55,125 nt of DNA from a virus (Duplodnaviria; Caudoviricetes), in IMG/VR virus record IMGVR_UViG_3300034351_000046, positions 1 to 55,125 of that record. One strand, 5' to 3'. This document shows, piece by piece, positions 2,351-52,913 of the stretch. How positions within the stretch are numbered: position 1 is the first letter of the stretch; the number at the start of each line of letters is the position of its first letter. The position numbers and the translations under genes are program-made. The notes beneath the pieces were generated by a model. The model saw nothing but the letters and a program-made list of their open reading frames with translations. It was not told where the DNA came from and made no database searches.

Positions 2351-2422
2351 TGCAGTGTCTTTCATTTGTGGTTTTGAGTTGAGTTGTGGGGGCCAGCCCA
2401 TCCGGGCCAGCCCCCTGGTTGA

Positions 2423-3628: not shown

Positions 3629-3683
3629 TGCAGTGTCTTTCATTTGGTTTTTTGTTTCGCTCGGTTGTGGAGACCGAGGTGTC

Positions 3684-3712
3684 AAGTTACGGACAAATGC
3701 GGACAAAGTCAA
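3684..3712 (-). promoter_or_regulatory. Sigma70-like int promoter overlapping the arm repeats
   Basis: TTGACT-17nt-TAACTT on the minus strand; the spacer consists of the two TGTCCG repeats. Confidence 0.5.
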
Positions 3713-3916
3713 CGAATATCTCTGACAATCTTTTCGACATCTCCGCGCATCTGCCCGGAGTCTGGATTATGTGCGTTTTCCTGGGGAATTGCCATGTTTT
3801 CCCTGATTTCAGGGCCTTTTGAATGAGGCGCCAGATAGCGTGCCTGGCACCTGATAAAAGTGCCGTTTTCCTTGACTTTTCCCCAGGATGCGCCAATGCG
3901 GACAGTTTACGGACAG
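3687..3916. other. Putative attP: arm-type direct repeats flanking an inverted-repeat core
   Basis: CGGACA pairs at 3690/3700 and 3899/3910; imperfect inverted repeat AGGCGCCAG-9nt-CTGGCACCT at 3826-3852; immediately upstream of int. Confidence 0.6.
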
Positions 3917-3946
3917 AAATCTCTGGCAGATAAGTGGTTAAAGGGC

Positions 3947-3974
3947 TTGCAATACGCAAGCGGTTGCTTACCTT
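3947..3974 (+). promoter_or_regulatory. Promoter with palindromic operator (copy 1)
   Basis: TTGCAA-TA-CGCAAGCGGTTGCT-TACCTT; same layout as 5335-5362. Confidence 0.5.
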
Positions 3975-4388
3975 GGTTTGATGGTCACGGGATGCCGCCA
4001 GCAGTGTCCGGCATTGCCCCCTTCCTGGGGGCCCGTGGCCGTTTACTTTGGCGCCTGCTGGGCTTCCCCAATCCCTGGCCTACCCAGCATGGCGCCGGGG
4101 GCCCCCGGACATGACGCCAACCAGTGGCCGCGCCGGGAGCCCCCTTCCTGCCTGGGGCTCGGCCCGGATCGTTGTCACTCACCGTCCGGGTTTGGCATTC
4201 CCCTGCCGAGTGGCCGAGTGACCGGCACGGCAGGCGCCGAAGGGCCCCAGGCAGGAGGGGGGCGGCAGCCTGGGGGGCGGCTTGACCGGGAGGGCAAGGA
4301 TGCAATTCTGACCGAGGCCGAGCTCGGGAGGCAGAACCACTAGAGGGAGGCAAATCGACTCGGCCCCCGCCACCCCATTTTGTTTACC

Positions 4389-5873: not shown

Positions 5874-5901
5874 CCGCCAAACTCAAAACCACAGTCGCAC
5901 C

Positions 5902-6561: not shown

Positions 6562-7099
6562 GTTCCCCGATCAACCCGATACCCAAGGCCATCCGGTAGA
6601 ACTTGGTCCGCTCCAGCGGACTGTCCACATGGAAGGTGGGATCGATCACTGCCATGTTCCATGGGCCGGCGGGATCATCGGCCTCCTCCAGCTTGGCTGA
6701 GATGACAATGGCCAATTCGTTTGTGGCCTCCACGCCATTTGGGCTCGAAGGAATGCTCGGAATCAGCAGGCTTGCCTCCTCGGAGAAATCGCTTTCCAGT
6801 CCACTGGTATTGAAAGCGGTGGCCGCAAAGTAGTAGACCAGGCCGCGCACAAAGTTGGTGATGATACAATTGGTCACGCTCACCGAAACGATTCCGTTGG
6901 TGAGTGTGTTGTGGAGGGTGACCACTCGAGTATAGGAACGGGAGTTGGTGCCGTCGTAGATCTTGTAGCCGGCAATGTCCAATTCTGGATTGGCATCCCA
7001 GGCCACCAGGACTCGAGGGGGCTTGTTGGTGGGGGCCAGCTGCCCCACGGCCGTAAAGGCCAGGAACAGCATCATGAGAAAAAGGATGGTTCGTTTCAT
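6551..7099 (-). CDS. Secreted fibronectin type III domain protein
   Basis: Signal peptide MKRTILFLMMLFLAFTAVGQ; Fn3 motifs WDAN...IAGYKIY...YYFAATAFN..GLESDFS; C-terminal LEEADD...W...FYR segment. Confidence 0.85.
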   Translation of the reverse strand: MKRTILFLMMLFLAFTAVGQLAPTNKPPRVLVAWDANPELDIAGYKIYDGTNSRSYTRVVTLHNTLTNGIVSVSVTNCIITNFVRGLVYYFAATAFNTSGLESDFSEEASLLIPSIPSSPNGVEATNELAIVISAKLEEADDPAGPWNMAVIDPTFHVDSPLERTKFYRMALGIGLIGEPIP

Positions 7100-10000: not shown

Positions 10001-13000
10001 AGCCGCTTCCACTTGACGTTGATCCGTTCCTTGGCCGTCTTGGCGCTGTTCTGGTAGGACTTGACCCATTCCTCGGCAAACTTCATCACCTCGGGATTGA
10101 CCCTGGCCACCTCATCCTCGGCTTCCCCGATCGTGCGGTTGGCCTCGGCCTGCTGGAGGCGTGCAATCTGGGCATCGAGCTTGATGCTCAATTCCTGATA
10201 CTTCCTGGCTTCCTTCTCCACCCGTCGAAACAGTTCCTGCTTCTCATCCCGGCTCAGCCGTTTCCACCCCTGCGCTTGGCGCATGGTGTGATACATGACA
10301 TCGGGAGTGAAATCCCACTTGAGGGCCAGCTGCCGCGCCCGGAAGGCTCGGGCCGTAAGGGTGCCACTGCGCGTGGTGATCTCTCGAAGCTGGACCAAAG
10401 CCTGCCCCCAGAAATCGACCTGGGCGCGTGCGGCTGCCGCCTCGGCCACCAGGCCTTTGCTCTCGGCTGCCTCGGCGGCTTTGGAGGCCTTCCAGATCTC
10501 AGTGCGGAGCTCGAGCATCCAGTAATCCAAGGCCAGGACCTCCTCATCGGAAAGCATGCCAGGCCGTTTCTGCTCACGATCCACGATCGAATCAACCCAG
10601 GTGGGATCCCTGGCAATCCGGCGTTGCACCGTATCGAGCAATTCCTGGTCTGGCTTCCCGAGGAAATCCCTCATGGGAGGATGGCCCATTTCTCCGAGGG
10701 CCTTGTCCATGTCGGCATTTCGGATCGCCAGGAAATCGAAGTTGGGATCCGGCATTCGGCTAATCGAGTAGCGTGTAGTGTAGTCCTTATCGTGTTCCTC
10801 GAGGCCAGATGTTGGCGGGGGTGGCCCTTCCTCGCTTGCGTTGTGCGGCTGAGCCCAGGCACTCGCATCATTGAGCCGCCCCGTCTCGGCGGCGTACTGC
10901 ATGCTGCCCGTTCCCGTGGCAACCTCCATGGCCTCCCGGAAGAACTGAGACTTGGTGGCGGCCGCCATCGCATTGTCGAAGTCCCCGGCCTGCATCAACT
11001 CTTGGCTGAGAGCCTTGGCTTCAGCCTGCTGTTGGCGCAGCTGGTCCACCTGGTCAGGCGTGGTCATCGTGCGGCCCAGGCGAACCGCTTCTCCAGTGAT
11101 CCCGTCCGGGATGGTCCGGGCCCACTCCGCAAAAGCCGGCGCGTCCATGGCTCCCACCTGGTCGACAGTCAACCGGGGCTGCCCCGAGGTCACCGAGTAG
11201 CGGGAGTTGGCTTTTTGCACGGCGCGTTTGGCCGCATTGACCCCCTCGGTCAAGGCCTGGTCCAGGGACAGCTCCTTGGCGATTTCTCCCGCCATGAAGA
11301 TGCGATGGAAGCCGGCCGAATCCGCATACTTGGTGTCCATGTTGCGGAGGAAATTGGCATACTGGCGCCAGCTGTTGGCCACTCGGGAAACGACTCGCGC
11401 CTGGTCCTTGGTTGTGGCCACCCAAAGGAGTTCCATCGACCTTGGATTGGAGACGCTAATCGATTTGACTTTACCCGAATTGAATTTGGACACTGAACCA
11501 TCAAGCTTGGATGCGGCCATCTCATAGGACTTGGCAGCAACAGCCGCCTGCATCTTGGCCCTGTTGGCCGGCAACCCCACTCGAGACATCTCGACCAGGG
11601 GCCCGACCGGGGGCTCGACCTTGCCGCTCAGGATGTCATTCATCGAGAACAGCTGGCCATCTGGCGTCATGGCGATCGTGGATCCGAGGGCAAAGCATGG
11701 GCCACCACCCACCAGGCAAGTCGCGCATCCATTGAGGGAAGGCCCGGACTCCAGGGCACAATAACAAGCCGGGGTATTAAGCATCCCCTCGGGATCGTTG
11801 ATGAGCTTGGCCTCAGCCAATGCATTGACCACCTCATTGGTCCGATTGATATGCAGCACCATCGGCACGCCGGCCCTTCTGGCTTCCAGGAGCACCGGGA
11901 TGTCATCCACATCTCGCACCAGGTAGGAGTTGACGATGCCGCGCTCGGCCAGGTTGTTCTTCAGGAAATCGATTCCATATTGGTCGATGTATTCCCGGTA
12001 AAGCTGCCGATCGATCGAGCCCATCTTGAAAACGGCCACGCCGTTCTCGACATCGTTCCGGTCATACTGCCCGTTGCTGATGGAATCCAACCCGATCGTG
12101 CCGGGGGCGCGTGACACATGCGACCGACTGAAGATGTGAACAGGACGGTCGAGCTCCTTGATGGCCTGGTTGACCGCAACTGCCTGCCAGGGAAACGTGG
12201 TGTCGCCTGCGCCATTGATACGCAGAAAGGCCTGTTCTTCCTTGGGCATGTTCCTGATGAAACGGGCCACATGGGTGCCGACTTTTTCCGGCTCCATTGC
12301 CGTCACCAGGGAATGGCGCACTCGAGACTTCACGCCCACTGCCGGATTGCGAAGGCCCTTGGCATAGCAAACCGCGCACCCTTCACTTGGCATGCACGTT
12401 CCCAGTCCGAAATCCCAGGACACCCCGCCGGCTTTAGAATTGGAGGCCAGGAAATTGGCGCCGATGCTGGAGTTAGGGTCATCGATGTCCTGGAAGACCC
12501 GATTGTATTCTGCCTTGATGGCATACCAGAAGTTCTTATCCACCACGTAATCTGGCGGCACTCTGGCATCGAGGGTTTTGCGGATGGCCGCAATGCCTTC
12601 CGGGCTGTAGAACTTGCGGATGTATTCGATTAGGGATTGCCCCTCGCGTGGTTGCTGCCAGGGATTTTCCCTGGGGTCCACCAGGTCAGAGAGAGCCTCG
12701 CCTTCCCGGTAAAGAACATCCTGCACCGTCTTGAAGGCATCCTCCATGTTCATGCCTTCGGTTGGAGGCACGTATTCTCGGGCGCCGGCAAGCGAGGTCT
12801 TGCCCCTTACGTCCGCATAACTGTAACGGATCGTGTTGATGCTGGAGAGGGGGCTGCCCGGAGGGTAGGTTTCCTGCTCGCGCAATGCCTGCAACTCGGC
12901 TGGAGATTCAGCAATTCGTTGGGCACGCTGGATGCCCTTGCTGATCATGTCAGCAATCTCGTAGTCCGAGTAAGCTCGCTTGGACCAGCCGGGGATCCGC

Positions 13001-15288
13001 ATGGCACGCGCAACCTGGCGAATCTTATTGGCCACCCTTCTCCAGAATGGCGTAACCACGCCCCACCTGGCGACTCGCTCGGCTTCATAAGCCAGCCACT
13101 CCTCCCCGATTTGATAGATATCAGTGGTAGGGATCCGGTTCCTGGCTGCTACATCGGCTCGATCATTTGGGCTGAGGGTCCGATACACTCGGTTGACCAG
13201 GGCCGTAAATGCGGTGGGTCCGAGGGCCTGGCGAAGACCCAGATGGATGCCCACTTCATGGGTGACCTTTTCCCGGACCAATAGACGATCCCCAACCGGG
13301 AATTTCTTGGCGTTGAAAATGACTCGGCCGTTTGAATAGACCGCATCGGCATCATCGAATTGAATCCCGCGCTCGGCCAGGTCCTGCTTGACGATGTCTG
13401 GCAGCTGGGATCCTTCGTCGACCACCTCCACCAGGTTAAGTGCCCACGGGAAATCCCGTTCGAGGTTGGTCTTCAAGCCCAGGGATTCCTGGGTCACCTG
13501 GGGCTCGGTGATTAAGGGTGCGGTGGGCTCGGTCACGGGAGCCTGCGTGACGGATGGCCTGGTTGTTTGGGCGGGAGATACCCCGGCAGCCTCGGGGGCA
13601 GCCGTTGGCGCTACTGCCGCCTCAGCCTGGGGGGTGGGCTGAGCCGTGGGGGCAGCCTCAGCTGCCGGGGTGGGCACTGCCGCCTGAGTGGGAGCCGGCG
13701 CAGGCCGAAGGGGAATGGTCTGCGCCACTTCTCGGGCGGCTCTCTCCCGACCTTGAAGCTGTTGTGTGGGGGTGGTTGGCACCCCCGGCTCCTGGCCGGC
13801 CGTCAGGCGTGTAGTCATCACATCGGCCGGCTGGCCACGAAGGGCTGCCTGCCGGATGGCTGCATCTTCTGCCAGCTGCTGGGCGGTGCTGGTAAGCCCA
13901 ACTGACAAAGCCTGGTTCACAGCCTGGGCACCCTGGATATCGGCCACTCGGGGCATGATCTCCTGAGCGGTGCCGCGCACTGGGCTCGGCTGAACTGGGA
14001 CCATCACTCGGATGTCATCGCCTGTAACACTCTTAGTTTTGAGGGAAACAAGCTGGGCCTCGGGCCCGAACTCCACCAGCCTTCGGATTTCTTCCCGAAA
14101 CTGTTTGAGCTCGGCTCGGTTTTTGGTCACCCGATCGATGGCTGCCGATCCCTCGAAAGTTCCACTGACACCGCCACCAATCAGTACCCCGCCCACGCCG
14201 GCCATCAGGATTTCCTTAACGGCCTCCTCGACGGTCTTATCGGGGTTATAGGTCATCCACTCATAGACCGACTGCAAAAACTGATCAACGACTTCCTCGG
14301 CGCCTTCATAGCCAGCTTCCTTGGCCAACCGCATGATGACGCCCTTGGCGACCAGGTCTTTCTTTGCGGCCGTCAGGACCTCTTTACCTGTTCGACCTGC
14401 GCCGGCCGTCACTACTGCCGTGATGATACCGGAAATCAAACCGTCCCCGGTGGCATGCCTTCGGGCTTCCTCTTCGGATTCACCCCGTTCCCGTCGCATC
14501 TCATAGGATTGAGCGTAAGTGTCGCCAGCCTGTTGGAGGCCTGACATGGCGATCATTGCCGGGAATCCAACCGGCGCCACGGCCACGGCAGGAATGGCAG
14601 TTCCAAAAGTCTGAACGAGGCCTTTGATCTCCTGGGGGCCAGGTGAATTCTGGGAGATCACATCCAAGGCATCCAGATATTCACCTGGCACATTGGCAGT
14701 CTCCTCGAAATGTTTGATGATCGGATCGAATTTCTTGGCTAGGGATTCGTAGAGCTCCCTGTTCTTCTTCGCCAACTCGGGCCCCAATGGAGGCGCCCAC
14801 GCACCAGGCATTTGTTGACCCGGAACTTGCTGCTCAGCTATCCCCCTGGCCAGGCTTTGAGGTAATGCCCCAAAAAGCCATCCCCCTATGCGCTGCATGT
14901 TCCTGGAAATGTCAGGCCAAAGACCCACTAAACCGAGCTTTGCCTGCGTGGCCACGTTTCCAAGACTTGGATATTCAACTCCAGGTTTGTAGATAGGGCC
15001 GGGAATCATGTAGCCCATGCCGAATTCGATTGGCACCTTGGGCTTTTCAGGAGGGGGCTCCTCGCCAGGCAAAAGCAGAGGGGCCTGGTAGAGATCAGAT
15101 GGCTTTTTGGCCCAGGCCTTTCCCGGCTCGGTCAAGGGCTTGGCCGGCTCATCGAAAGTGAGAGGAGCAGTGTAGATGTCCTCCTCTTCGCCACCAGGCT
15201 CATCGAAAGTAAGTGGAGCCGTGTAGATGTCCTCCTGCTCGGGAGAATCAAAAGTTAACGGCGCTGTGTAGATGTCCTCATTCGGCAT
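7099..15288 (-). CDS. Giant polyvalent internal virion / DNA-ejection protein (2729 aa)
   Basis: Near the end of the virion operon; hydrophobic Gly/Ala helices; zincin-like HEVGIH...EEWLA; Cys-rich GP88-like region; long coiled coils. Confidence 0.8.
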   Translation of the reverse strand: MPNEDIYTAPLTFDSPEQEDIYTAPLTFDEPGGEEEDIYTAPLTFDEPAKPLTEPGKAWAKKPSDLYQAPLLLPGEEPPPEKPKVPIEFGMGYMIPGPIYKPGVEYPSLGNVATQAKLGLVGLWPDISRNMQRIGGWLFGALPQSLARGIAEQQVPGQQMPGAWAPPLGPELAKKNRELYESLAKKFDPIIKHFEETANVPGEYLDALDVISQNSPGPQEIKGLVQTFGTAIPAVAVAPVGFPAMIAMSGLQQAGDTYAQSYEMRRERGESEEEARRHATGDGLISGIITAVVTAGAGRTGKEVLTAAKKDLVAKGVIMRLAKEAGYEGAEEVVDQFLQSVYEWMTYNPDKTVEEAVKEILMAGVGGVLIGGGVSGTFEGSAAIDRVTKNRAELKQFREEIRRLVEFGPEAQLVSLKTKSVTGDDIRVMVPVQPSPVRGTAQEIMPRVADIQGAQAVNQALSVGLTSTAQQLAEDAAIRQAALRGQPADVMTTRLTAGQEPGVPTTPTQQLQGRERAAREVAQTIPLRPAPAPTQAAVPTPAAEAAPTAQPTPQAEAAVAPTAAPEAAGVSPAQTTRPSVTQAPVTEPTAPLITEPQVTQESLGLKTNLERDFPWALNLVEVVDEGSQLPDIVKQDLAERGIQFDDADAVYSNGRVIFNAKKFPVGDRLLVREKVTHEVGIHLGLRQALGPTAFTALVNRVYRTLSPNDRADVAARNRIPTTDIYQIGEEWLAYEAERVARWGVVTPFWRRVANKIRQVARAMRIPGWSKRAYSDYEIADMISKGIQRAQRIAESPAELQALREQETYPPGSPLSSINTIRYSYADVRGKTSLAGAREYVPPTEGMNMEDAFKTVQDVLYREGEALSDLVDPRENPWQQPREGQSLIEYIRKFYSPEGIAAIRKTLDARVPPDYVVDKNFWYAIKAEYNRVFQDIDDPNSSIGANFLASNSKAGGVSWDFGLGTCMPSEGCAVCYAKGLRNPAVGVKSRVRHSLVTAMEPEKVGTHVARFIRNMPKEEQAFLRINGAGDTTFPWQAVAVNQAIKELDRPVHIFSRSHVSRAPGTIGLDSISNGQYDRNDVENGVAVFKMGSIDRQLYREYIDQYGIDFLKNNLAERGIVNSYLVRDVDDIPVLLEARRAGVPMVLHINRTNEVVNALAEAKLINDPEGMLNTPACYCALESGPSLNGCATCLVGGGPCFALGSTIAMTPDGQLFSMNDILSGKVEPPVGPLVEMSRVGLPANRAKMQAAVAAKSYEMAASKLDGSVSKFNSGKVKSISVSNPRSMELLWVATTKDQARVVSRVANSWRQYANFLRNMDTKYADSAGFHRIFMAGEIAKELSLDQALTEGVNAAKRAVQKANSRYSVTSGQPRLTVDQVGAMDAPAFAEWARTIPDGITGEAVRLGRTMTTPDQVDQLRQQQAEAKALSQELMQAGDFDNAMAAATKSQFFREAMEVATGTGSMQYAAETGRLNDASAWAQPHNASEEGPPPPTSGLEEHDKDYTTRYSISRMPDPNFDFLAIRNADMDKALGEMGHPPMRDFLGKPDQELLDTVQRRIARDPTWVDSIVDREQKRPGMLSDEEVLALDYWMLELRTEIWKASKAAEAAESKGLVAEAAAARAQVDFWGQALVQLREITTRSGTLTARAFRARQLALKWDFTPDVMYHTMRQAQGWKRLSRDEKQELFRRVEKEARKYQELSIKLDAQIARLQQAEANRTIGEAEDEVARVNPEVMKFAEEWVKSYQNSAKTAKERINVKWKRLFPQTPLRFSVAEGPTPLPEEVLRDLAIIGGSKLAQNITDRVDWNEAMVEELGPNISPYLDQVWPASQQDLTTRLTRGRADLASARASRVVERPARTQQEMGPEQIVESAMAKFRQIQAHEASSTEPVGSRQSELYYPTQRLVRGLVELDPLMTRDELTQTVHRMISEVVPRITIEETRDLISGRGRVREPAQDDVSKTIRDLKAQIRIFSNILDAEAKRPIPKTGWLADEKSDEQLRLERDLNRAKKINGEVITDAKYQQKTYLDSRKTWYRNRITDLRWEMDPNNWEARERMRAQREDRREQTDEELEALKEEYDRVREEYAQIFEAPGLTDLQRIERAERAAERMITKMEEDLVEGRRTSANKRDPVTSAKLEALRARIAQLRAEQEWAQREINPPPDLTTKEDYKRWFQLDREIRKLENQLANQDVFPKSKKIRPEDKPSNQRMAARLEDLKNQRKEMRERLGPGKPDPVTKAINLRVSQLRRQIADYKQRIADQDFSPRRRKEPPKEVTQNRDVIDLTAQRERIQRDFYNQAEAERIKNLTGMKKVWYGIRRMRTAVTNLRSSYDFSGSRQGIVALLSLGMRLPTSPIKTTPRIARAFIDMFKAASSRARAERINAAIRRKPNYESGAYKIMGIEFTDIESPTFNRAEENARSVFDEWANMGLWGGKSKLGKVAGLPFRALAIPVAGSNRAFATFLNVLRSELADVLLQENFSDRPPTENELRILGNWVNVATGRGYVPPAAARGFSEFIWAPKLLMSRVQFLTGQPLWGAGDFAHSKRARWIVAKEYARVLSSAAFLYLISTLFDDKDEVPPTSSDFMKIVRGNTRIDLWGGFIQPIVLASRILTNSTTTLKGRTIDFDAANAYGVGNLVDVLVRFGRSKLRPDIGVALDIISREDFLGRPTNIPNIMRDLFVPLPFADIVDIYKARGFSEGTILTILNIFGAGVNTYTDDNKYPRETRTR
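15151..15279 (-). repeat. Three EDIYTAPLTFD peptide repeats at the giant protein N-terminus
   Basis: 33-nt units at 15247-15279, 15202-15234 and 15151-15183; identical at protein level, synonymously diverged. Confidence 0.95.
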
Positions 15289-28140: not shown

Positions 28141-28524
28141 TCACGCGATTAGTAGCACCCAAGCTCCAGTGGTGTCATTCCAATACCACACCTGGCCGGA
28201 AGTCCGATTGATCCAGATCTGGCTTTCAACGCCAGGATCGGCCACGGGATCGACGGTCCTGATAACCACTCCACCAAGAGCACCTGGTGACCCAACCAGC
28301 TGACAAAGCATTTCCAGCTGCGCGGCCAACAGCTGTTTGTTGGTCATCGATGTGTAGGGATTGGAATCCGCAATAAGATCTTCAACAGAGCAGGTGGCCA
28401 TGGGATCGAGGGTTTGTTTGATCTGGCAGAGGATGGTGAGGATTGCGACTCCTAATTGCTTCTCACTGAGGCAGAGCAGGCAATCCGAATCCTGCAAGAT
28501 CGTGGTTGGGTTGCAAGTTGCCAT
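28141..28524 (-). CDS. Virion protein with two Cys helical modules
   Basis: MATC...C..CLSEKQL...ILCQI occurs twice, then a WINRTSGQVWYW tail. Confidence 0.8.
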   Translation of the reverse strand: MATCNPTTILQDSDCLLCLSEKQLGVAILTILCQIKQTLDPMATCSVEDLIADSNPYTSMTNKQLLAAQLEMLCQLVGSPGALGGVVIRTVDPVADPGVESQIWINRTSGQVWYWNDTTGAWVLLIA

Positions 28525-28612
28525 AGGCTCAAAAATGTTAGGCTAGGTCAGCACCGGGGCCGCCATCCCAGTGCTGACCACGCCTTCACCAATACCCACC
28601 GACCTGAACTTG

Positions 28613-29011
28613 TTAACGACCAGGATTGAAGAGCGTTCCGTTATTGATGCCACGCTCGATCTGGTCAACGACCATGCCCCGGACCTTTTTGGGATCCGCG
28701 CAGTTGAGGCAGACGGCCTCCTCAACCAAGGCTTCAAGATCGGTGATTCGACCTTGCTCGACGGCATACGTGGCAATCATGGCAACGGCCATTTGGAACA
28801 GCTGCCGGTCACTGAAGCAACCGGAACAACTCGCATCCTGGATCATCTGAACAGCCGTGCATTCGTTATCCTCATCGGTTGACACGATGCGGCAAAGCAC
28901 GATTGCGAGAACAAGGAAAAGCTGTTGATCCGACAGACACCGCAAACACGGATATTCGGACAGTGCCTCGGCGGTTCCTTGGGGCGCCCATCTTGGAGAA
29001 TTAGTAGCCAT
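28613..29011 (-). CDS. Protein with three Cys helical modules
   Basis: CLRCLSDQQL, CSGCFSDRQL and CLNCADPKKV. Confidence 0.8.
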   Translation of the reverse strand: MATNSPRWAPQGTAEALSEYPCLRCLSDQQLFLVLAIVLCRIVSTDEDNECTAVQMIQDASCSGCFSDRQLFQMAVAMIATYAVEQGRITDLEALVEEAVCLNCADPKKVRGMVVDQIERGINNGTLFNPGR

Positions 29012-29267
29012 AGGAATTATTCATTGCGGCCGCTTCGATCTCCTCATCGGCAGACATCATTTGCGGCCCTTCTTCGTCTTCCATTTCGGATTCTTCCGAC
29101 GAAGCCGAGGCCGAGACTTCAACTTCGTCACCATAGAGGGCGGTTACTTTCAGGGTGATCGTATCGCCTGGTTTTACCCCGTCCGCAAAGAGGCTCCGGG
29201 GCAAGAGCGCATTTTGCTCCATGTCCGAGCCAGACTCGGAGCTCATCCCGTTTTCGTCATAAGGCAT
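29001..29267 (-). CDS. Small acidic capsid-associated protein
   Basis: 88 aa with KPGDTITLKV; ends with ADEEIEAAAM, also found at the scaffold C-terminus. Confidence 0.75.
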   Translation of the reverse strand: MPYDENGMSSESGSDMEQNALLPRSLFADGVKPGDTITLKVTALYGDEVEVSASASSEESEMEDEEGPQMMSADEEIEAAAMNNSYGY

Positions 29268-44103: not shown

Positions 44104-44634
44104 ATGCCAGTTTTCACTGATTCTGATTCCAATTATGAGATCGTGCCCGAAGGGGATTACATCCTCTGCGTGTTCGAGTTTTCAACCGACATCTCATCCG
44201 GCCAGAAAACAGCCGGCGCCGAGCGGTTCAACATCGTGTTCACCGTGGAAGGAACCAATGCCAAGGTGCGCGAAACCTTGATCGATGCAGAGCAGACACT
44301 CTGGAAAATCGATCAATTCGTCAAAGCCGCCGGCATCCGCTCCCTTCAAAAGGGTGATGCGTTTCACTTCGAGCAGGACCGCGCCGAAGAATTAAACGTG
44401 CCGTGGATCAACCCCATGGGCTTGCGCGTGCATGCTCGGGTGGTCGAGGAGACCTACACCTCGAGGAGGTCAGGTAAGCAAGTCACCAAAAATGCCGTGG
44501 CCCTCTACTATACCGATAAGGAACCGCTCAAGCCGAATCCCGAGCTCCGCAACAAACCCACCAGCAAACCCAAACAGGAGGAATCCCAAGAGTCCACCAG
44601 TCCTTGGGATGCCAAGCCCAAGACACCGTTCTGA
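44104..44634 (+). CDS. DUF669-like ssDNA-binding protein
   Basis: VPEGDY N-terminus, terminal PF, and position in the recombination cluster. Confidence 0.7.
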   Translation: MPVFTDSDSNYEIVPEGDYILCVFEFSTDISSGQKTAGAERFNIVFTVEGTNAKVRETLIDAEQTLWKIDQFVKAAGIRSLQKGDAFHFEQDRAEELNVPWINPMGLRVHARVVEETYTSRRSGKQVTKNAVALYYTDKEPLKPNPELRNKPTSKPKQEESQESTSPWDAKPKTPF

Positions 44635-44651
44635 TTCATACCACAGTTCGC

Positions 44652-46172
44652 ATGAAACCCAGGCCCTACCAAACAGAGGCCGTCCTTAAGATTCGACACG
44701 GTTTTAAGGAGTTCAAAAAGCAACTGGCAGTCCTCCCGACTGGCAGTGGCAAAACCATTCTCTTCTCCTGGCTTGCTGAGGAAATCCAGCCGCTCAAGAC
44801 ATTGATTCTTTGTCATCGGCAGGAGCTCCTCACGCAGGCCGTGGAGAAGTTGAGGATGGCCACCGGGATCCGCGCCGAGTTGGAAAAAGCGGAGTGGACT
44901 GCCTCCGCTGAAGCCCCGGTAGTGGTGGCCAGTGTTCAGAGCATGATCCGAAGGCTGGACCGGTGGCCATCTGATCACTTTCACCTGGTGGTAGCCGATG
45001 AGGCCCACCATGCCGTCTCAGAATCCTGGCAGAAGGTTCTGAACCATTTTGACAGCTACGTTTTGGGATGCACTGCCACGCCTGATCGAGCGGACCAACG
45101 CACGCTCGGTGAGTACTTCGAGAACGTAGCTGTCGACATTTCATTGGTACGCCTAATTCGAGAGCAATACCTCTCCAACATCGTCATCAAAAGCGTGCCC
45201 CTTAAAATCGACCTGACCAAGGTCCACCTCCAGGGTGGGGACTTCGATGAGGTGGAGCTTGGCCACCTCCTGGAGCCCTACCTGGTCACGATTGCCCAGG
45301 CCATCCGAGACCACGCAAGTTTCCGCAAGGTCCTCGCCTTCCTTCCACTGATCGATACCAGCCGAAAGTTTGTCGAGGCCTGCCGCCAGGTGGGACTCAC
45401 AGCCAAGCACGTAGACGGTAAATCCCCTGACCGCGCAGAGATCCTCCAGCAGTTCGACAACAACCAATTTGACGTTCTGTCAAACGCGATGTTGCTTGTT
45501 GAGGGCTACGATTCCCCCAGCATCGATTGCATCGTTGTCTTGCGCCCTACCAAGAGCCGGCCGCTTTTCGCGCAGATGGTGGGACGGGGCACTCGGGTCC
45601 ATCCGGCCAAGGAAAACCTGCTTCTGCTGGACTTTCTTTGGCTCCATGAACGGCATCGGATTGTCCACCCTGCCGATCTGATGGCCCATGACGCCGAGGA
45701 GGCTGATATCGTTACCGAGCTCTCCCAGAAGCTCTCTGCCCAGGGCGCCTCGGAGGAACAGCTGGACCTGCTCACCCTGGCCGCTAGCGCCACTGAAGAG
45801 CGCGAACGTAAGTTGCGCGAACGCCTGGCCGAGCTCGCCAGCCGCAAGGCCAAATTCATCAGCCCTGAGCAATTCTGCTTGGAGCATGGCGAGACCGAAA
45901 CGGCCTTCTATGAACCCACCATGAAGTGGGAAGGCAAGCCGATCACACGCAAGCAAATGAAGTATTTGGAACGAACCAAAATCGATCCAGACCTCATTAA
46001 GGGGCGCGGCCACGCCTCCAAGCTCCTGGACGTTATGTTCAAACACAAAGACCTGGAGCTCGCCTCCCAAAAGCAACGGTGGTCCATGCAGCAACATGGC
46101 CACCCAGATCCATGGATGGCAACCAAAGCTGAAGCCAGAAGATTCTTCGCCCAACTCAACCGAAAGAAATGA
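44652..46172 (+). CDS. SF2 DEAH-box helicase
   Basis: RPYQ, LPTGSGKT, DEAHH, TAT, NAMLLVEGYD and QMVGRG motifs. Confidence 0.95.
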   Translation: MKPRPYQTEAVLKIRHGFKEFKKQLAVLPTGSGKTILFSWLAEEIQPLKTLILCHRQELLTQAVEKLRMATGIRAELEKAEWTASAEAPVVVASVQSMIRRLDRWPSDHFHLVVADEAHHAVSESWQKVLNHFDSYVLGCTATPDRADQRTLGEYFENVAVDISLVRLIREQYLSNIVIKSVPLKIDLTKVHLQGGDFDEVELGHLLEPYLVTIAQAIRDHASFRKVLAFLPLIDTSRKFVEACRQVGLTAKHVDGKSPDRAEILQQFDNNQFDVLSNAMLLVEGYDSPSIDCIVVLRPTKSRPLFAQMVGRGTRVHPAKENLLLLDFLWLHERHRIVHPADLMAHDAEEADIVTELSQKLSAQGASEEQLDLLTLAASATEERERKLRERLAELASRKAKFISPEQFCLEHGETETAFYEPTMKWEGKPITRKQMKYLERTKIDPDLIKGRGHASKLLDVMFKHKDLELASQKQRWSMQQHGHPDPWMATKAEARRFFAQLNRKK

Positions 46173-46819
46173 ATAAAACAATCTACATCCCACCGAAGCG
46201 AGTTAAACGCATCGACAGACCGCTTGCCGTTTTGGCGATCAGAGACTGGAAGGCAGTAACCCTGGAAAATCCAGGCCCCGTTCTCTTCGATCCACCAATG
46301 AAGATCGATATCACTTTCGGGTGGACGGATCTGACTCGCTATAAAAGAGCCTGCAAGCTGGCATGCCGGCAAAGGATAGAATCCCAAATGCAGGGGCACC
46401 ACCACCATAAAGGAGCAAGAGATGGGGATGCCTGGAGAACCCACATCGAAGGATGTTGTGGCCAGGAACCGATCTCGATCCTCAAAGGTGTTCCACCCAA
46501 CCAAAAATTGAACGTCTTTTTTCATGGGGCCGATGTAGACGGGGATGAAGTTAAAACCAGAGACCGGGATCTAACGGATCGAATTGATCTTTTTGTCGAC
46601 TACGGAGACATCATCATCGACCGCATTTATTGGCTGGTAGTTGGGCGAGCTCCTATCTTCCATGTCTTTGGCTGGATCCCAGGCGATGAACTTAAGAAGC
46701 GCGGGAAGGCGATTTACGTTCCGGGCAGGGGAGACAGCTTTGGGATCAATCAGGCCTTGCTATACAAGGGGATGCCGCCCTACAAAAATCGGCAAATCAA
46801 ACCTGACTCTGAATCATGA
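46169..46819 (+). CDS. Hypothetical PD-(D/E)XK-like phage protein
   Basis: GADVDGDEVKT...VFGWI. Confidence 0.6.
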   Translation: MNKTIYIPPKRVKRIDRPLAVLAIRDWKAVTLENPGPVLFDPPMKIDITFGWTDLTRYKRACKLACRQRIESQMQGHHHHKGARDGDAWRTHIEGCCGQEPISILKGVPPNQKLNVFFHGADVDGDEVKTRDRDLTDRIDLFVDYGDIIIDRIYWLVVGRAPIFHVFGWIPGDELKKRGKAIYVPGRGDSFGINQALLYKGMPPYKNRQIKPDSES

Positions 46820-47382
46820 AAATGAAAATTATCAACGGGCTCCATCGGACCCTCTGCCCCACATTCCCGAGATCCGGCAACACCTTTGTCATGCTGACCC
46901 TGGGTGATTATTTCGGCACTGATCGGTTTCGCTTTGCTGATGTTTACAAGTTTCCTGAACAAGGATTTCAGAAAGACCCAAAATGCGTAATGCAGAAAAC
47001 CCACGATTTTGACTTTGTTGATCAACCCCAAAAGCAATGGAAACAGTTAGTCCAGATCCGCAATCCGCTCGATGCGCTGGCCAGCTGGCAAGTCCTCAAA
47101 ACCAAGGAAGGAACCGCCCCCAACAAACCAAGGCAATGGTGGAAAGAACAAATGGACTACTATGCCAAGTTCGTTAAAAAGTGGATTCTCGACGATGTCC
47201 CAAATCGCCTGGTGGTGACCTACGAAAAGCTGATGGCCGATCCGGTTGGAGTCATGTGTGACATCGTCCTTTTTATAGAGCATGAACCGAGGTCAGTTGA
47301 TTTTGAACGCATGGGGCAAATCGTTGGCATTCGTCTCAAACGCACACAGGGAATTTATCCAAGACCCTATGTCCAACTCTAA
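46816..47382 (+). CDS. PAPS-dependent sulfotransferase
   Basis: 5'-PSB loop FPRSGNT, KTHD, 3'-PB motif RNPLDALAS, and YEKL. Confidence 0.85.
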   Translation: MKMKIINGLHRTLCPTFPRSGNTFVMLTLGDYFGTDRFRFADVYKFPEQGFQKDPKCVMQKTHDFDFVDQPQKQWKQLVQIRNPLDALASWQVLKTKEGTAPNKPRQWWKEQMDYYAKFVKKWILDDVPNRLVVTYEKLMADPVGVMCDIVLFIEHEPRSVDFERMGQIVGIRLKRTQGIYPRPYVQL

Positions 47383-47647: not shown

Positions 47648-47883
47648 GAATTTTCCAGGAACGCAAGGTGGCCTATGCGGTGGAGGGCCCCTACGAAGAT
47701 CAAATGCGACTTACTACCGGAGATCGAAAAACCATGGATGAGGCACTCGAAGCCGCCAGGGAATTCGAGAAAGAAATGCCGATTCAGAAATTACGGCTTG
47801 TAAAGACAGTGACGATTGTCTATACAGAAATCCTTCCGTATCCACAACGGCACAGCAGGTGCCCTAAATGCGCGACAAAATGA
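47644..47883 (+). CDS. Hypothetical protein
   Basis: 79 aa; ATGA overlaps at both ends. Confidence 0.7.
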   Translation: MRIFQERKVAYAVEGPYEDQMRLTTGDRKTMDEALEAAREFEKEMPIQKLRLVKTVTIVYTEILPYPQRHSRCPKCATK

Positions 47884-48353
47884 GCGATTGGAAATATTTG
47901 AACAGATGCCGGATCCCGCCAGGGAAATCCAAGATGTATGGATCCCGCCCCTCGGACGGGTTCAATGGCGCCTTTCACATCACCATCAATGGGCTGGAGC
48001 TCCTGGCCCTGGCCTCCGATGGGATGGGGTGGCAGCATGTCTCCGTTTCAATTGCTCGCCAGCCGACACACACACCCAGCTGGCACATAATGTGCGCGTG
48101 CAAAAACCTTTTCTGGGAGGACACCGACACGGTCATGCAGCTGCACCCTCCCAAGGCTCTTTACGTAAACCATCACCCAGGATGCCTGCATCTGTGGAAA
48201 CCCACGATGGATGGCGTCATCATCCCGCTGCCGCATCCCGCCATGCTGGGATGGGAAATGGAAGATGGGAAATCGGCCCTGGAGGTCCCAGGCCTGCCCC
48301 AAGAGGTTCAGGAGTGGATCGAGAAGCATTACGGGAAAAGGGCCCCCGAATGA
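47880..48353 (+). CDS. Conserved phage protein (WxHVSVS...HPxCLHLW family)
   Basis: GWQHVSVS, PSW..MC..K.LFW, QLHP and YVNHHPGCLHLW motifs. Confidence 0.85.
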   Translation: MSDWKYLNRCRIPPGKSKMYGSRPSDGFNGAFHITINGLELLALASDGMGWQHVSVSIARQPTHTPSWHIMCACKNLFWEDTDTVMQLHPPKALYVNHHPGCLHLWKPTMDGVIIPLPHPAMLGWEMEDGKSALEVPGLPQEVQEWIEKHYGKRAPE

Positions 48354-48503
48354 GAGACGGGTGACCGGAAGGACACTACTACTTCCAATCACCCGTCATT
48401 CTCAAAACCACAGTTCGCGACTGTGGTTCTAACGATTTTTTGACTTTCAGCGCAAGCTGAAAATCGAGAAACCAAAAAACCAAAAAAGCAGAAAGACCAC
48501 AGT

Positions 48504-49250
48504 ATGAAGAGATCAGAGGCTAAAGAGCCTATTGGAAATCCCGTCCTCCCAGGCGGGAAGGAAAAGAAGGAACGCATCATCATCAAGCCGCCCAACTTCG
48601 GGCTGGCTCAATTCACGATCGAGGGGCTCACGCAATTGTGCGTCCATCGATTCTCACAGAAGGTCCTCGAAAGCCTGCGCGGAGAACCCGATGCAGAAAC
48701 CGGGGAGAAAGCACCATCCAAAGCCAAAAAGAAGCCCAAGAAAAAGTACTCCGACGAAGTGCTTTATCATGACGCTCGCTACATCAGCCCGGAGGGCTGG
48801 GACGGAATCCAGGCCAGTGCCTTCCGTAACTGCATGATCTCGGCATGTCGCGTGGGCGGCTTTGAGATGACCAAAGCAAAGCTGAGCCTGTTCTGTGTTC
48901 AGGACGGGTTCGATGCCACTCAACCTCAATTCGGCATCGTCCGAATCTACGGTGAACCGCGCATGGCGATTGACATGGCCAGGGTCTCCCGAGGGGATCC
49001 CTATCCTGTTGTGCGTCCGGTTTACATGCCCTGGCACGCGAAAGTGAAAATCCGATGGGACGCAGATCAATTCCATCTGGATGACGTTGCCAACCTCCTC
49101 TACCGAGCCGGCGTGCAGGTTGGTGTCGGTGAGGGACGCTGGGACAGCAAAAAGTCTGCTGGCCTTGGTTGGGGGCAATTCGCAATCACGGGCATTGAAA
49201 GACTCACTCTCGAAATCCCACAACTACCACCGATTCCACCCATTAAATGA
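48504..49250 (+). CDS. RAMP/Cas7-like RNA-binding protein; putative effector of the adjacent array
   Basis: RRM-like layout: first strand FTIEGLTQLCVH, IQASAFRNCM (cf. the RAMP IPxSxxKG helix), and a C-terminal Gly-rich loop GVQVGVGEGR...GLGWGQF. Confidence 0.7.
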   Translation: MKRSEAKEPIGNPVLPGGKEKKERIIIKPPNFGLAQFTIEGLTQLCVHRFSQKVLESLRGEPDAETGEKAPSKAKKKPKKKYSDEVLYHDARYISPEGWDGIQASAFRNCMISACRVGGFEMTKAKLSLFCVQDGFDATQPQFGIVRIYGEPRMAIDMARVSRGDPYPVVRPVYMPWHAKVKIRWDADQFHLDDVANLLYRAGVQVGVGEGRWDSKKSAGLGWGQFAITGIERLTLEIPQLPPIPPIK

Positions 49251-49804
49251 GCACCAAAACCAAAGTCGAATTCGGCTATGCGCCGATGCCCAACTCGAAG
49301 CTGAACAAAACTCAGGTTCAGGTTGTGGCCTCCGAATTCAAACGCCTGGAAGAAAAACATCGGGTTCTCAAGCCGGCCACGATTGTCGAGGCCGCTCGCC
49401 CCCAAGGGTCCAGGCTACACCCATTCTTCACCTGGGATGATCGGGCAGCCGCCGAGCAATACCGGCTGATCGAAGCGCAGATGCTTTCCCGATCTGTCCG
49501 CATATTCCAGGTGGGAATCCCACTGGCTGAACAGCCGGTTGTTCGCGCTTGGGTCCATGTGACCGCACATAGCGAGGAGACCGAGTTTGAAGGCCCAGGC
49601 TACATCAGTGTGAATCGTGTTTTGGACGACACTCGCTACCGGGAGCAGATGCTCCAGGAAGCCAGAGATGACATCCGCATTTTTCAGCGCAAGTACGAGG
49701 ACCTCCTCCTTGTGACGGGGGCCATGGAAAGCGTTGAGAAAGTCAAAAGCAAGCTAGCTCCAAAGCCGCGCAGGCGCGGTGGGGCGCGTCACAAAGCGAC
49801 CTAG
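49247..49804 (+). CDS. Conserved partner protein of the RAMP-like gene
   Basis: ATGA-coupled; LKPATIVEAAR..GSRLHPFFTWDDRAAAEQYRL..A motif; function unknown. Confidence 0.75.
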   Translation: MSTKTKVEFGYAPMPNSKLNKTQVQVVASEFKRLEEKHRVLKPATIVEAARPQGSRLHPFFTWDDRAAAEQYRLIEAQMLSRSVRIFQVGIPLAEQPVVRAWVHVTAHSEETEFEGPGYISVNRVLDDTRYREQMLQEARDDIRIFQRKYEDLLLVTGAMESVEKVKSKLAPKPRRRGGARHKAT

Positions 49805-49828
49805 CAAGCAAAGCCCTGTAGTGGCGGC

Positions 49829-50743
49829 GCAGGCGAGTCATGGCCGAGAGTGATTGGTGGAGAGTGTCGATGCCAGGTTAGACATGGCAATGCTGGCACG
49901 ATGCCGCTCCTCCGAGCAAGTCGAGTTCAAACCGAGCGCGATGCAGTATGTCAAGACATGCCATTGCAGGCTCGACCAGCCCCGTCTTGATGCGGCTGGG
50001 AAGGGCAAAGCACAACAAGACATGTCCTGGTTTGGTGCGACCGAGCCAGGCAAGGTCAGGCGTGTCGCGACAAGGCAAAGCTGGCGCGACAATGCGAGTC
50101 CAGCCTGAGATGGGTGCGACGATGCCTGACATGGCAAAGCAATGCAGGCAAGGCGCGATCTGGCGAGCCAGCGCACGTAATGGCGGGGCGCGATGCGTCC
50201 CTGCGCGACATGGCAAAGCTGGCGAGTCGAGCCTCGTTGAGGCGAAGCTAAGCTGAGTTGGGCAATGCAGGCAAAGCGCGAAATGGTCTGGCCTTTTACG
50301 ACGAGGCGGGTCTAAGCGATCCCAGGCTGGCCAAGCGCGAATTGTCAGAACCGAGCGAGCTATGGATTGCCAAAGCAATGCAGGCGGTGAGTGGGGAGCA
50401 TTGACTGGCGAGACTAGTCAAGCCACGACAGTGCAGGCAAGTCGAGTTCGTGCCTAGCCCAGCGTTGCGTGACATGGCTGAGAAGAGCAACGCAGGCAAG
50501 TCGAGGCGGGACACGTACTGACTCGGCACGGCATGACACAGCATGGCAGGCATGGGATGGCGAGACTAGTTGTAGTTTAGCCCGGCCTGGTCCGTCTGAG
50601 CAGGCATGGAATTGCTGGTCAAGTTGTAGCAAGGCGGAACCTGGATTGTCTGGGTGAAGCCAAGCAGGCATGCCCACGCAAAGCAGGGCCAAGTCTAGTG
50701 AAGCCTGACAGTGCAGGTTTGGCTGGGTTTGGCTTGTCGGTAA
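49829..50743 (+). ncRNA. Pentamer-periodic guide-like array (NN + triplet units, GC(A/T)GGC delimiters)
   Basis: 15 delimiters; 12 of 14 intervals equal 5n+9 nt; no credible ORF; the NN strings decode to phage protein motifs. Confidence 0.85.
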
Positions 50744-50747
50744 ACCC

Positions 50748-50786
50748 GAGTGGCCGGTAGGTTGATTCCTGCCGGCCGCTCACTTT
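50748..50786 (+). terminator. 14-bp stem-loop closing the array
   Basis: GAGTGGCCGGTAGG-TTGATT-CCTGCCGGCCGCTC (two G-U pairs), followed by ACTTT. Confidence 0.65.
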
Positions 50787-50801
50787 CAATGGAGTGAACT
50801 T

Positions 50802-52913
50802 ATGGAATTGATCGAACAAGCCGCACGTTATCTTCAGTCGATCCCGCCGGCCATCTCTGGCCAGGGTGGACATTCTCAAACCCTCAACGCCGCCCGAGCC
50901 CTGGTCTGGGGCTTCAACCTTCCCGAGGCTCAAGCCATGGAGCTCCTGAGTCAGTGGAACCAAGGGTGCCAGCCACCCTGGAGCCAGAGGGAGCTCGAGC
51001 ACAAAATCAAGGAGGCCAACAGCAAGGAATTTGGTAAACCGCGCGGCTATCTCCTCTCCAAGAACCAACGCTATCTTTCGCGCAACGCCGCTCGACCAGG
51101 CGTCGAGTCCAAACCCGAGGTGGCTGCCAAACAATACGATCTGAGCACCGCCCAGGAAATCGAACTGCCCAAGGGCAAGCGCGACGGGTTTTTCCAGTTG
51201 CTGGAGGCCTGCTTTAAACCTGGTGAAGGCGTGCGCGTGATGGGCGGCATGGATGAGGAGGGGCATGTGCGGTGTGATCCCCACGGGGGCGTGGTCCTTT
51301 CCAGGGAGGAGTGGATCAGTAAGCTCGAACAGAAGGGCAGCATCAACGCGCTCTACTATCGCCTGGGAGGTCCTCCGCTGGGGGTTTACCTGGGCATCAA
51401 CCCGATGAAAATCGGGGGCGGCAACAAGGATGCCGATGTCACGGCCTATCGCCACTGCCTGCTGGAGTTTGACAAGATCTCCATTCGCGAGCAGTGGGCC
51501 CTGATCGTCCAGTCCAACATCCCCTGCGCGGCCGTCATCTACTCGGGCAACAAATCGATCCACGCCTGGGTGAAGGTCGACGCGCCAGACCGCAAGACCT
51601 ACGACGAACGGGTCAGCGCCATTTACGATCACTTCCGGGAATATCAACCAGATGTCAAAAACAAGAACCCCTCCCGGTTCTCCCGGTGCCCGGATGCCAA
51701 GCGCGATGATACGGTGCAGTATCTCCTGGGCCTGAACCTGGGCGCCGAGTCCTACACCGAGTGGAGCAAGCAACTCCTGGTGGAGGGAATCGGCATCACC
51801 TATTCGGCCAAGGAGGTGCGCGAATACGATCCCACCGAGGACGGCATGACCGTGGCCGGGGATCAATGGCTTCGCAAGGGCGGGTCCTGCATCCTGGTGG
51901 GGCCCTCGGGCGTGGGCAAGTCCAGTCTGGCCTGCCAGATTGCCATGTGCTGGGCCCTGGGCCGGCCCTGCTTTGGAGTGACGCCGGTCAAGCCGCTCAA
52001 GATCCTCTTCCTTCAAGCCGAGAATGACCTGGCCGATTTGCACTCGATGAACATCGGGATTTACCAGGGCCTGGGAATACTCGATCAACCGGAGGCCTTG
52101 GAGATGATCGACCGCAACCTGGTCTACAACCACAACGTGGCCGACACGGGCCACTCCTTCATCGTCGCGTTGCAGAAGCTGGTGGACTACCACGAACCGG
52201 ACCTGGTGATTGTCGATCCCCTGCTCTCATTCATTGGCGATGACGCCAGCCGGCAGGAGATCGTGGGCCGGTTCTTCCGCAACTGGCTCAACCCGATCCT
52301 GCACAATTCCAACGTGGCCTTCATGGGCGTGCATCACACCGGCAAGCCGCCTCAGCAGCAGGAAGGCAAGGGCGGCAAAAAGCCCCCGCGTCGATCCCTG
52401 GCCGAGTGGTCCTACCAGATGATGGGCAGCAGTGAGTTGACCAACTGGGCGCGTGCGGTGGTCCTGCTCAATCAGCTTCCCGAGGGCGACTTCGAGTTGA
52501 TCTTCTCCAAGCGCGGCAAGCGTGCCCAGGCCACGCATCCCAATGGGAGCCCCACGCAAATCGTCCGATTGCGGCATAGTCCTCTGGCAATTTTCTGGGC
52601 CCAGGAGGATCCCCCGGAGGAACCGGTCACCGCTTCGGAATCCGAGCCCCAGGCGGCACCCAACATGACAGCTGGACAAATGGTCCAGACAGTGGCTAGC
52701 TCCAATCTTTATGAGTTCACCAATTCGATCCCCAAAGAGGGCATAAGCAATGCCAGACTGCGCGAGATGATAGTGGACTACGCCGCCAACACTCTGGGGA
52801 TCGACCTGGGCGAACCGAGATCCGGGCGTGTCACGCGCACGCTGGAAGCCCTAGTCCGCAACCACAAACTGAGCCGCAAAGGAAAACTCTACATCAAGGG
52901 GCACGATGCATAA
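50802..52913 (+). CDS. Primase-helicase (AEP-like plus AAA_25/RepA-like helicase)
   Basis: PPAISGQGG N-domain; LLEFD, SGNKSIHAW and NPSRFSR primase motifs; GPSGVGKS, IVDP and VHH helicase motifs. Confidence 0.9.
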   Translation: MELIEQAARYLQSIPPAISGQGGHSQTLNAARALVWGFNLPEAQAMELLSQWNQGCQPPWSQRELEHKIKEANSKEFGKPRGYLLSKNQRYLSRNAARPGVESKPEVAAKQYDLSTAQEIELPKGKRDGFFQLLEACFKPGEGVRVMGGMDEEGHVRCDPHGGVVLSREEWISKLEQKGSINALYYRLGGPPLGVYLGINPMKIGGGNKDADVTAYRHCLLEFDKISIREQWALIVQSNIPCAAVIYSGNKSIHAWVKVDAPDRKTYDERVSAIYDHFREYQPDVKNKNPSRFSRCPDAKRDDTVQYLLGLNLGAESYTEWSKQLLVEGIGITYSAKEVREYDPTEDGMTVAGDQWLRKGGSCILVGPSGVGKSSLACQIAMCWALGRPCFGVTPVKPLKILFLQAENDLADLHSMNIGIYQGLGILDQPEALEMIDRNLVYNHNVADTGHSFIVALQKLVDYHEPDLVIVDPLLSFIGDDASRQEIVGRFFRNWLNPILHNSNVAFMGVHHTGKPPQQQEGKGGKKPPRRSLAEWSYQMMGSSELTNWARAVVLLNQLPEGDFELIFSKRGKRAQATHPNGSPTQIVRLRHSPLAIFWAQEDPPEEPVTASESEPQAAPNMTAGQMVQTVASSNLYEFTNSIPKEGISNARLREMIVDYAANTLGIDLGEPRSGRVTRTLEALVRNHKLSRKGKLYIKGHDA

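Follow-up and report, generated by a model that had tools for sequence, protein, structure and literature searches.

The stretch analysed here, which we call the window, comprises 55,125 nt of a tailed-phage record (positions 1 to 55,125 of IMG/VR record IMGVR_UViG_3300034351_000046; Duplodnaviria, Caudoviricetes), and our subject is the region 48504-50800, which carries a Viral Interference Programmable Repeat (VIPR) locus with an array of pentamer repeats. We think it likely that one guide of this array, v6, would silence the helicase of related phages, to which the phage's own helicase gene is a mismatched counterpart. VIPR was first described in 2026, for E. coli and Pseudomonas systems; a system consists of a minimal RAMP protein of ~20 kDa with an RRM core, a thumb and a glycine-rich loop (Vipr), of vrRNAs with 9-16 YNNGG repeats and of an accessory gene, vap. 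In pairing with double-stranded DNA, the NN dinucleotides of the vrRNAs skip one base of the target, usually the codon wobble, and the natural targets are competing phages, satellites and prophages (10.64898/2026.04.26.720920). A cryo-EM study describes one protomer per repeat, sequestration of GGY and an R-loop triplex (10.64898/2026.04.26.720927), and a further report presents evidence from in vivo work that the system competes with a satellite (10.64898/2026.10.15.759431). The features of the window on which the argument turns are the following, those of the array being placed with a hidden Markov model (HMM).

48504-49250, plus strand: vipr gene, encoding a minimal RAMP (Cas7-like) protein of 248 aa with a C-terminal glycine-rich loop (GVGEGRWDSKKSAGLGWGQF); assigned from fold, profile and array neighbourhood.
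49247-49804, plus strand: candidate vap (vipr-accessory) gene, 185 aa, overlapping the vipr stop codon and lying directly before the array.
49805-50740, plus strand: staggered vrRNA array, ~13 vrRNAs of 10-23 pentamer units NN-G-G-C; from periodicity, HMM phasing and the unit table.
50268-50327, plus strand: vrRNA v6, 12 units, CAGGC AAAGC GCGAA ATGGT CTGGC CTTTT ACGAC GAGGC GGGTC TAAGC GATCC CAGGC; from HMM phasing and the unit table.
50273-50322, plus strand: ten-pentamer core of this guide, read from the sequence, with NN = AA GC AT CT CT AC GA GG TA GA.
44604-46172, plus strand: resident SF2 helicase gene (Pfam ResIII, DEAD, Helicase_C; phrog_16 DNA helicase).
45483-45512, plus strand: resident motif V site NAMLLVEGYD, AAC GCG ATG TTG CTT GTT GAG GGC TAC GAT, in frame, with 45483 at codon position 1.

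The Vipr-like protein belongs to a family of at least 1290 unannotated members and has no Pfam match. Its AlphaFold2 model (pLDDT 82.7, pTM 0.75, with a low-confidence N-terminus of ~30 aa) has its best Foldseek matches in Cmr4, Csm3 and type VII Cas7 (E 7.6e-7 to 5e-4), and aligns by VIA-align with Cas7 proteins at Z 11.5-8 over residues 28-241 and with the Cas6 structure 6fjw_A at Z 7.4; the loop GIGEGRxDSKxSAGxGWG is conserved in the family alignment of 33 sequences. In the 50 kb searched, the family HMM (alignment A3) matches an open reading frame (ORF) of Escherichia phage SUSP1 at 28474-29061 on the minus strand with E 1.8e-10, the next match having E 0.34. This ORF is flanked by TNNGG repeat tracts, in agreement with the preprint's account of SUSP1, and from its position and size it is probably the published vipr gene. 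The profile alone detects the relation, since the two proteins have no similarity at the BLAST level. Because the family profile matches an ORF set between such tracts, we name the gene at 48504-49250 vipr and regard its neighbour at 49247-49804 as a candidate vap. The latter matches phrog_15946, of unknown function, and its AlphaFold2 model (pLDDT 91.1) has weak fold matches (Z no higher than 5.8), mostly to winged-helix domains over residues 20-125, which a long C-terminal helix follows. A DNA-interacting fold is what one expects of a vap product, and for this model Foldseek gave no match at E 0.001 or better. Cultured phages, too, encode Vipr-like proteins, annotated there as hypothetical, at 43.7% identity in Cyanophage Cy-LDV1 (BK059895.1, 31484-32062) and at ~29% in five Gordonia phage records representing four phages (ODay, UmaThurman, Ecliptus and Pipp).

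The array occupies most of a 997-nt non-coding stretch, 49805-50801, in which lag autocorrelation gives an identity of 0.40 at lag 5 against 0.20 at lags 2 and 3. Five-state HMM phasing resolves a unit NN-G(0.65)-G(0.60)-C(0.73) in which one base is dropped at regular spacings of 49, 54, 59, 64, 74 or 114 nt (the last once), always 5k+4; put differently, neighbouring blocks share one base, a 1-nt frame overlap. Some VIPR arrays are staggered with 1-nt overlaps according to the legend of fig. S18 in the preprint (10.64898/2026.04.26.720920), and because the 5k+4 spacings correspond to such overlaps the array fits this staggered type. It thus splits into ~13 blocks, v1-v13, of which v8 is irregular, while the 12 regular blocks have 10-15 units each, except for one with 23; the block ends are conserved (..ATGGC AAAGC AATGC / CAGGC AAGKC..). 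We regard 49805-50740 as a staggered vrRNA array. Comparison of 49000-51500 with Rfam gave no hammerhead or other family, only two sub-threshold matches, BLASTN of the array against cultured phages gave no match, and a promoter and terminator consensus scan of 48300-50900 found none, although the consensus used may differ from the host's promoter type. None of the sequencing runs listed for the array is an RNA run.

Arrays of this kind are widespread. A search of viral contigs with the pattern (GCNNN)x10, that is, ten GC dinucleotides at 5-nt spacing, recovered at least 120 contigs, most with arrays of 0.2-1.8 kb. Among 120 array loci listed from this pattern-only selection, vipr homologs lie beside the array in 19 and vap homologs in 16, the array standing before, between or after them. 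The G-rich strand is the coding strand in all 31 listed array loci that carry a vipr, vap or helicase homolog, as it is in the window.

What singles out v6 is that its units 2-12 spell codon positions 1 and 2 of N A M L L T E G Y D Q/H, a form of SF2 helicase motif V. The original prediction, made from the letters of the window, had read the same ten pentamers and the same NN string within 50267-50325, a span that encloses the exact one. It had proposed that the guide fits the helicases of related phages, and a search with the exact gapped 10-unit pattern bears this out: the pattern occurs in 90 viral contigs and in 47 genome contigs, 46 of the latter at helicase motif V and one (L333) at an unrelated chance site. 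All 95 pattern matches in the viral loci that we collected translate to NAMLLTEGYD in a helicase context. They are in frame, as is the site in ORF 44604-46172, so that the skipped target base is codon position 3, the wobble base that had been predicted to go unread. In eight loci the match extends to 22/22 over 11 units, and it stops where the block ends. Against the full 12-unit v6, an NN match of 80% or more is attained at 97 sites in the collected loci, with scores of 20-22 of 24, and nowhere in the window. Sites matching at 20/20 are present in contigs of both closest primase relatives (61% identity), and full v6 attains 21/24 against whole relative contigs, a score reached by 0/60 shuffles. 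The guide itself is absent from every other collected array.

NAMLLTEGYD had been taken for the usual form of the motif and the resident Thr-to-Val change for an unusual one, and both judgements hold. Among the best 150 representatives of helicase clusters at 50% identity, 147 of which could be aligned, NAMLLTEGYD is the commonest single version (22), position 6 is Thr in 114 and Val in 2, and NAMLLVEGYD occurs in none. Loci chosen independently of the pattern contain 16 distinct motif V versions, four of them matching v6 at 20/20 and 10 at 18/20 or better, with Thr at position 6 in 14/16 and Val in 0/16. As to the host, by our own count 41 of the 47 titles of genome contigs with the pattern name Verrucomicrobiota lineages, two of the names having been checked; these titles suggest Verrucomicrobiota as the host group.

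Whether such a match might arise by chance needs to be considered separately for the resident gene and for the family. For the resident gene, we compared every array offset at period 5 with every position of the remaining window at period 3, and found nine windows at 17/20, against nine each for the reversed and the complemented array and, in 12 pentamer shuffles, 6 on average and 12 at most. The resident 17/20 match alone is therefore largely at chance level and not significant, and it was this match, at 8/10 dinucleotides, that the chance estimate of the original prediction concerned. When only the NN phase is admitted (48 ten-unit windows), the helicase site is the sole match at 17 or better, and 3/40 runs with shuffled NN also gave one. 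The match to the family consensus at 20/20, on the other hand, is far beyond chance. An independent NN model predicts 4e-4 exact in-phase matches in 1.5 Mb of collected loci, a set partly chosen by the pattern, and ~2e-6 for words seen at least 10 times; in 1.6 Mb of loci chosen without the pattern there are five real matches against none in 1000 shuffles of NN order; and the dinucleotides in reversed order matched no viral contig. Reordered strings of this kind were the control on which the prediction had staked itself.

Other apparent matches did not survive inspection. A 19/20 gapped match between array offset 49914 and position 5904 is out of NN phase, skips a base other than the wobble and joins two purine-rich sequences, and we judged it to be chance; the remaining matches at 18/20 or better in the collected loci are single, of low complexity or out of phase. 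When the first three bases of every unit were taken as a codon, in the arrays of the window and of the relative L001, tblastx gave only low-complexity matches apart from KAMLLTEG*DQ, and a metagenome scan with generic Walker-type patterns found three distant loci only.

The resident helicase differs from the guide at two codons, Leu TTG where the guide has CT and Val GTT where it has AC, so that it matches 8/10 dinucleotides, as originally noted, and 17/20 bases. The three bases that differ all fall where the guide reads, and apart from 45483-45512 no site in the window comes within three mismatches of the gapped pattern. Since the differences are confined to guide-read bases, one of them being a family-rare amino-acid change, they look like avoidance, and the mismatches probably spare the phage's own helicase. 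The resident match is 17/24 (71%) over the full guide and 17/22 (77%) over 11 units. These values lie below 80% NN, the criterion for natural targets in the preprint, whose survey reports no self matches at or above this level (10.64898/2026.04.26.720920). Self-avoidance is thus plausible from a comparison of guide and gene.

We propose the following scenario. By analogy with the SUSP1 and Pseudomonas fulva systems, one Vipr protomer would bind each pentamer and hide its three GGY-like scaffold bases, leaving two NN bases presented for pairing with double-stranded DNA, every third target base being skipped. The resulting stable complex would block transcription. Programmed for codon positions 1 and 2 of NAMLLTEGYD(Q/H), v6 would then silence the replicative helicase in related phages that are co-infecting or resident, and because it would read only these two positions, synonymous third-base choices would offer them no escape. 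That the vrRNAs are expressed and processed, that they bind and silence, and that three mismatches suffice for self-avoidance we infer. The phage carrying the locus probably infects Verrucomicrobiota. A guide directed against rival phages and skipping the wobble base is also what the original prediction had arrived at; the mechanism was right but not new, as it has been demonstrated experimentally for VIPR systems in the preprint (10.64898/2026.04.26.720920).

A number of observations weigh against this scenario. Its scaffold is GGY in only 5/12 units, the exceptions including TTT, TCC and GAA, and strict GGY is found in only 1-9 units per vrRNA across the array; since the published Vipr proteins contact G1, G2 and Y3 specifically, according to the structural study (10.64898/2026.04.26.720927), v6 may load poorly, or else this clade reads a looser scaffold. 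At the array we found neither a 3' tail nor a pseudoknot like those of SUSP1. Low-depth related contigs from two other studies (runs X12 and X13; 85-95% alike) join 50284 to 50436 and so are missing 151 nt that hold v7, v8 and the greater part of v6, which implies that v6 is dispensable. Ten of the 12 regular vrRNAs have no target above shuffled controls in three whole relative contigs or in the collected loci, and an exact 11-unit scan of viral contigs with v12, a tentative second guide considered below, gave no match. Lastly, over the 10-unit core the resident site matches at 17/20 (85%), above the 80% line, so that self-avoidance depends on the guide ends and on mismatch tolerance. The predicted escape of the phage's own copy accordingly stands as regards the three mismatched read bases and the scores over 11 and 12 units, and is in doubt over the core, avoidance itself being a matter of interpretation.

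The scaffold and the related contigs are also what would be expected if the array were a genuine VIPR array in which v6 is decaying or inactive, its helicase match recording a past function or origin and its scaffold no longer loading Vipr. We consider this unlikely. The read bases of units 2-12 are perfect, 22/22 against eight loci and 20/20 against 95 sites, whereas neutral decay should strike NN and scaffold bases alike. Moreover, low GGY conformity is common to the whole array while its 5-nt periodicity is strong, which suggests that the scaffold rule of this clade is looser; the preprint allows "a related consensus" and notes that internal degeneracy is frequent (10.64898/2026.04.26.720920).

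One may also imagine that v6 is a partly mismatched autoregulatory guide tuning the expression of the phage's own helicase and not a weapon against rivals, given that the resident site is the sole in-phase match at 17/20 or better in the genome and the core match is 85%. This seems to us quite improbable: the guide fits the family consensus (20-22) better than its own gene (17), the resident differences fall only at guide-read bases and include a change rare in the family, and the published surveys contain no self matches at 80% or more. Still less probable is that the match to the helicase is a coincidence within a genuine VIPR array. The chance-level score of the resident site over all offsets, the ten vrRNAs with no above-chance target in the collected data and the fact that the decoding was chosen after looking would speak for it; the expected numbers and the shuffled and reordered controls given above speak against it, as does the position of the match, which begins at unit 2 of a 12-unit block, ends with the block at unit 12 and has its NN phase in codon phase. 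That the pentamer region is instead a DNA-level element, such as the replication origin or iterons of the adjacent primase-helicase, is hardly credible, for although the primase-helicase gene (50802-52913) follows it directly, as is also the case in the relatives L001 and L003, a primase homolog is found in 0/120 listed array loci against 19 with vipr and 16 with vap, the relative L002 has the primase with no array in the 936 nt upstream, and the strand asymmetry of the array follows the strand of vipr. TRAP-like RNA wrapping, G-quadruplex strings, Chi or primase-site arrays, a pac site and an origin were considered and dropped.

If v6 does act against the helicase of relatives, one may go a step further and regard guide and gene as a pair, "weapon plus immunity allele", in which a guide against the consensus motif is accompanied by a recoded, resistant helicase of the phage's own, excluding close relatives from the same cell. 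The recoding would consist of Thr to Val by two base changes and of the sole kind of synonymous Leu change visible to a wobble-skipping code. We hold this extension to be possible but somewhat doubtful. If true, it would be a natural case of escape from, or immunity to, the VIPR code evolving inside a catalytic motif, and would show VIPR aimed at core replication genes of sibling phages, beyond satellites, regulators and other VIPR loci.

Another vrRNA may also have a recognisable counterpart.

50601-50665, plus strand: vrRNA v12, 13 units, a tentative second guide resembling the DUF7694 motif [HG]IMCxxKxLFWE; from match counts.

Its best match, 20/26 in the relative G002 (128-166), was reached by 0/60 shuffles, and three of its top four collected matches are a homologous DUF7694 motif, in G002, in the window itself at 48084-48122 (ORF 47868-48353, 19/26) and in L011 (19/26). 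v12 may be a second guide, against the DUF7694 motif. In the related contigs of runs X12 and X13 the stretch 50498-50659 (162 nt) is replaced by 128 other letters; this exchange and the 151-nt skip mean that the array turns over by whole vrRNA units.

Related arrays vary considerably in form. The closest primase relatives, which were found with an alignment query (a single-sequence primase query gave none in viral contigs), are L001, with its array at 2459-4000, and L003, 99% identical to it over 2000-4100; they carry a 1.5-kb array with the unit NNN-G(0.80)-C(0.85), which gains one base every 26-41 nt (5k+1) and so falls into ~48 short blocks. Directly upstream of it, at 1859-2458 of L001, is a 199-aa ORF ending in a G-loop-like GLGQWRNSGKGRF; its comparison with the Vipr HMM is not significant (E 0.03, in the G-loop region only). 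This array may represent the different VIPR type with a "YNNNG" repeat that is named in the preprint (10.64898/2026.04.26.720920). Very long, nearly slip-free NNGGC arrays are found in L184 (6350-7090, 735 nt with no frame slip), L219 (7501-9325, minus strand, 1.8 kb) and L270 (4251-5275), each within ~0.5 kb of an SF2 helicase homologous to that of the window (30-35% identity), and these could be VIPR types with a helicase as accessory gene. An AT-rich variant in L229 (6326-7025) has runs of NTTGC pentamers separated by a conserved ~60-nt spacer, that is, a repeat tract followed by a conserved tail.

Between the array of the window and the primase-helicase gene lies one further structure.

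50750-50797, plus strand: two stable hairpins; RNA fold -34.9 kcal/mol, z -5.2, with 0/200 shuffles as stable.

The region has a weak, sub-threshold Rfam match to ctRNA. By our own reading of 30 letters, the loose end of a related contig has one base change in each arm with the pairing kept, and the hairpins are possibly a terminator or the 3' structure of the last vrRNA. Elsewhere in the window, a motif CTCAAAACCACAG(T) stands just upstream of gene starts at 5881-5898 and 48402-48420, as it does at 899-916 of L002, and at 48406-48440 it folds into a hairpin with a T-run behind it. The motif is perhaps a promoter or terminator element of the phage. The window also has an ORF of 2729 aa at 7099-15288 on the minus strand and a 188-aa ORF at 46816-47382 whose weak match to a sulfotransferase domain stays below the Pfam cut-off (21.9 vs 22 bits).

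The locus extends VIPR to an uncultured phage lineage with relatives and targets in Verrucomicrobiota assemblies, and to a staggered array with a looser scaffold. It offers a clean natural pair of guide and target, in that v6 is exact to the commonest motif V version, in more than 130 public contigs, and the carrier's gene differs only at read bases. With this pair, the tolerance of NN mismatches, the loading of Vipr on degenerate scaffolds and self-protection by recoding of essential motifs become testable. For annotation, at least 120 viral contigs with arrays can be retrieved by the (GCNNN)n pattern, and a family of at least 1290 proteins can be named Vipr-like.

It remains to compare the locus with known systems. 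A CRISPR-Cas array was rejected, as repeat finders gave only degenerate families at 61-88%, with no tandem array and no repeat-spacer structure, and there is no cas1, cas2 or other cas family among nine ORFs scanned with Pfam and PHROGs (42 to 55 kb). There is nevertheless a kinship with the Cas7 backbones of Class 1 CRISPR systems (Csm3, Cmr4, Csf2, type VII Cas7), which give the best structural matches (Z 11.5-9) and share the RRM-based RAMP fold, the G-rich loop and the thumb, and likewise place one protomer per guide repeat length with pairing interrupted periodically. Unlike in Cas7 complexes, where the period is 6 with five bases read, the guide of the window has a period of 5 with two read, and guide and target periods are unequal (5 vs 3).

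With the type II VIPR systems of Escherichia phage SUSP1 and a Pseudomonas fulva prophage, the locus shares a small RAMP protein with a G-loop, by profile a relative of the SUSP1 ORF, and a two-gene operon adjoined on the same strand by non-coding pentamer repeats. The vrRNA lengths are also alike: against the published 9-16 units, all regular vrRNAs but one have 10-15, the exception having 23, and the irregular v8 comes in addition. As in the published systems, NN is read, one target base is skipped at the wobble position and the targets lie in competing phages; over the full guide, though not over its 10-unit core, there is likewise no self match at 80% or more. The differences are several. 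The scaffold of the window is a looser NN-G-G-C (65/60/73%) as against the strict GGY of the SUSP1 type, its vrRNAs abut with a 1-nt overlap and have no ~40-nt conserved tail or pseudoknot, and its candidate vap has no detected similarity to SUSP1 vap1, though no formal comparison was made. Architectures with a conserved 3' tail (type II), ribozyme-interspersed arrays and single vrRNAs are among the others in the preprint (10.64898/2026.04.26.720920). Here a replicative helicase is the target, in an essential catalytic motif, whereas the targets named in the preprints are a satellite recombinase, lysogeny regulators and other VIPR loci, and the carrier is of the Verrucomicrobiota type of metagenomic phages and not of E. 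coli or Pseudomonas. The supplementary tables of the preprint may already cover this clade or helicase targets; in either case the locus is a member of the VIPR kind from a different phage lineage.

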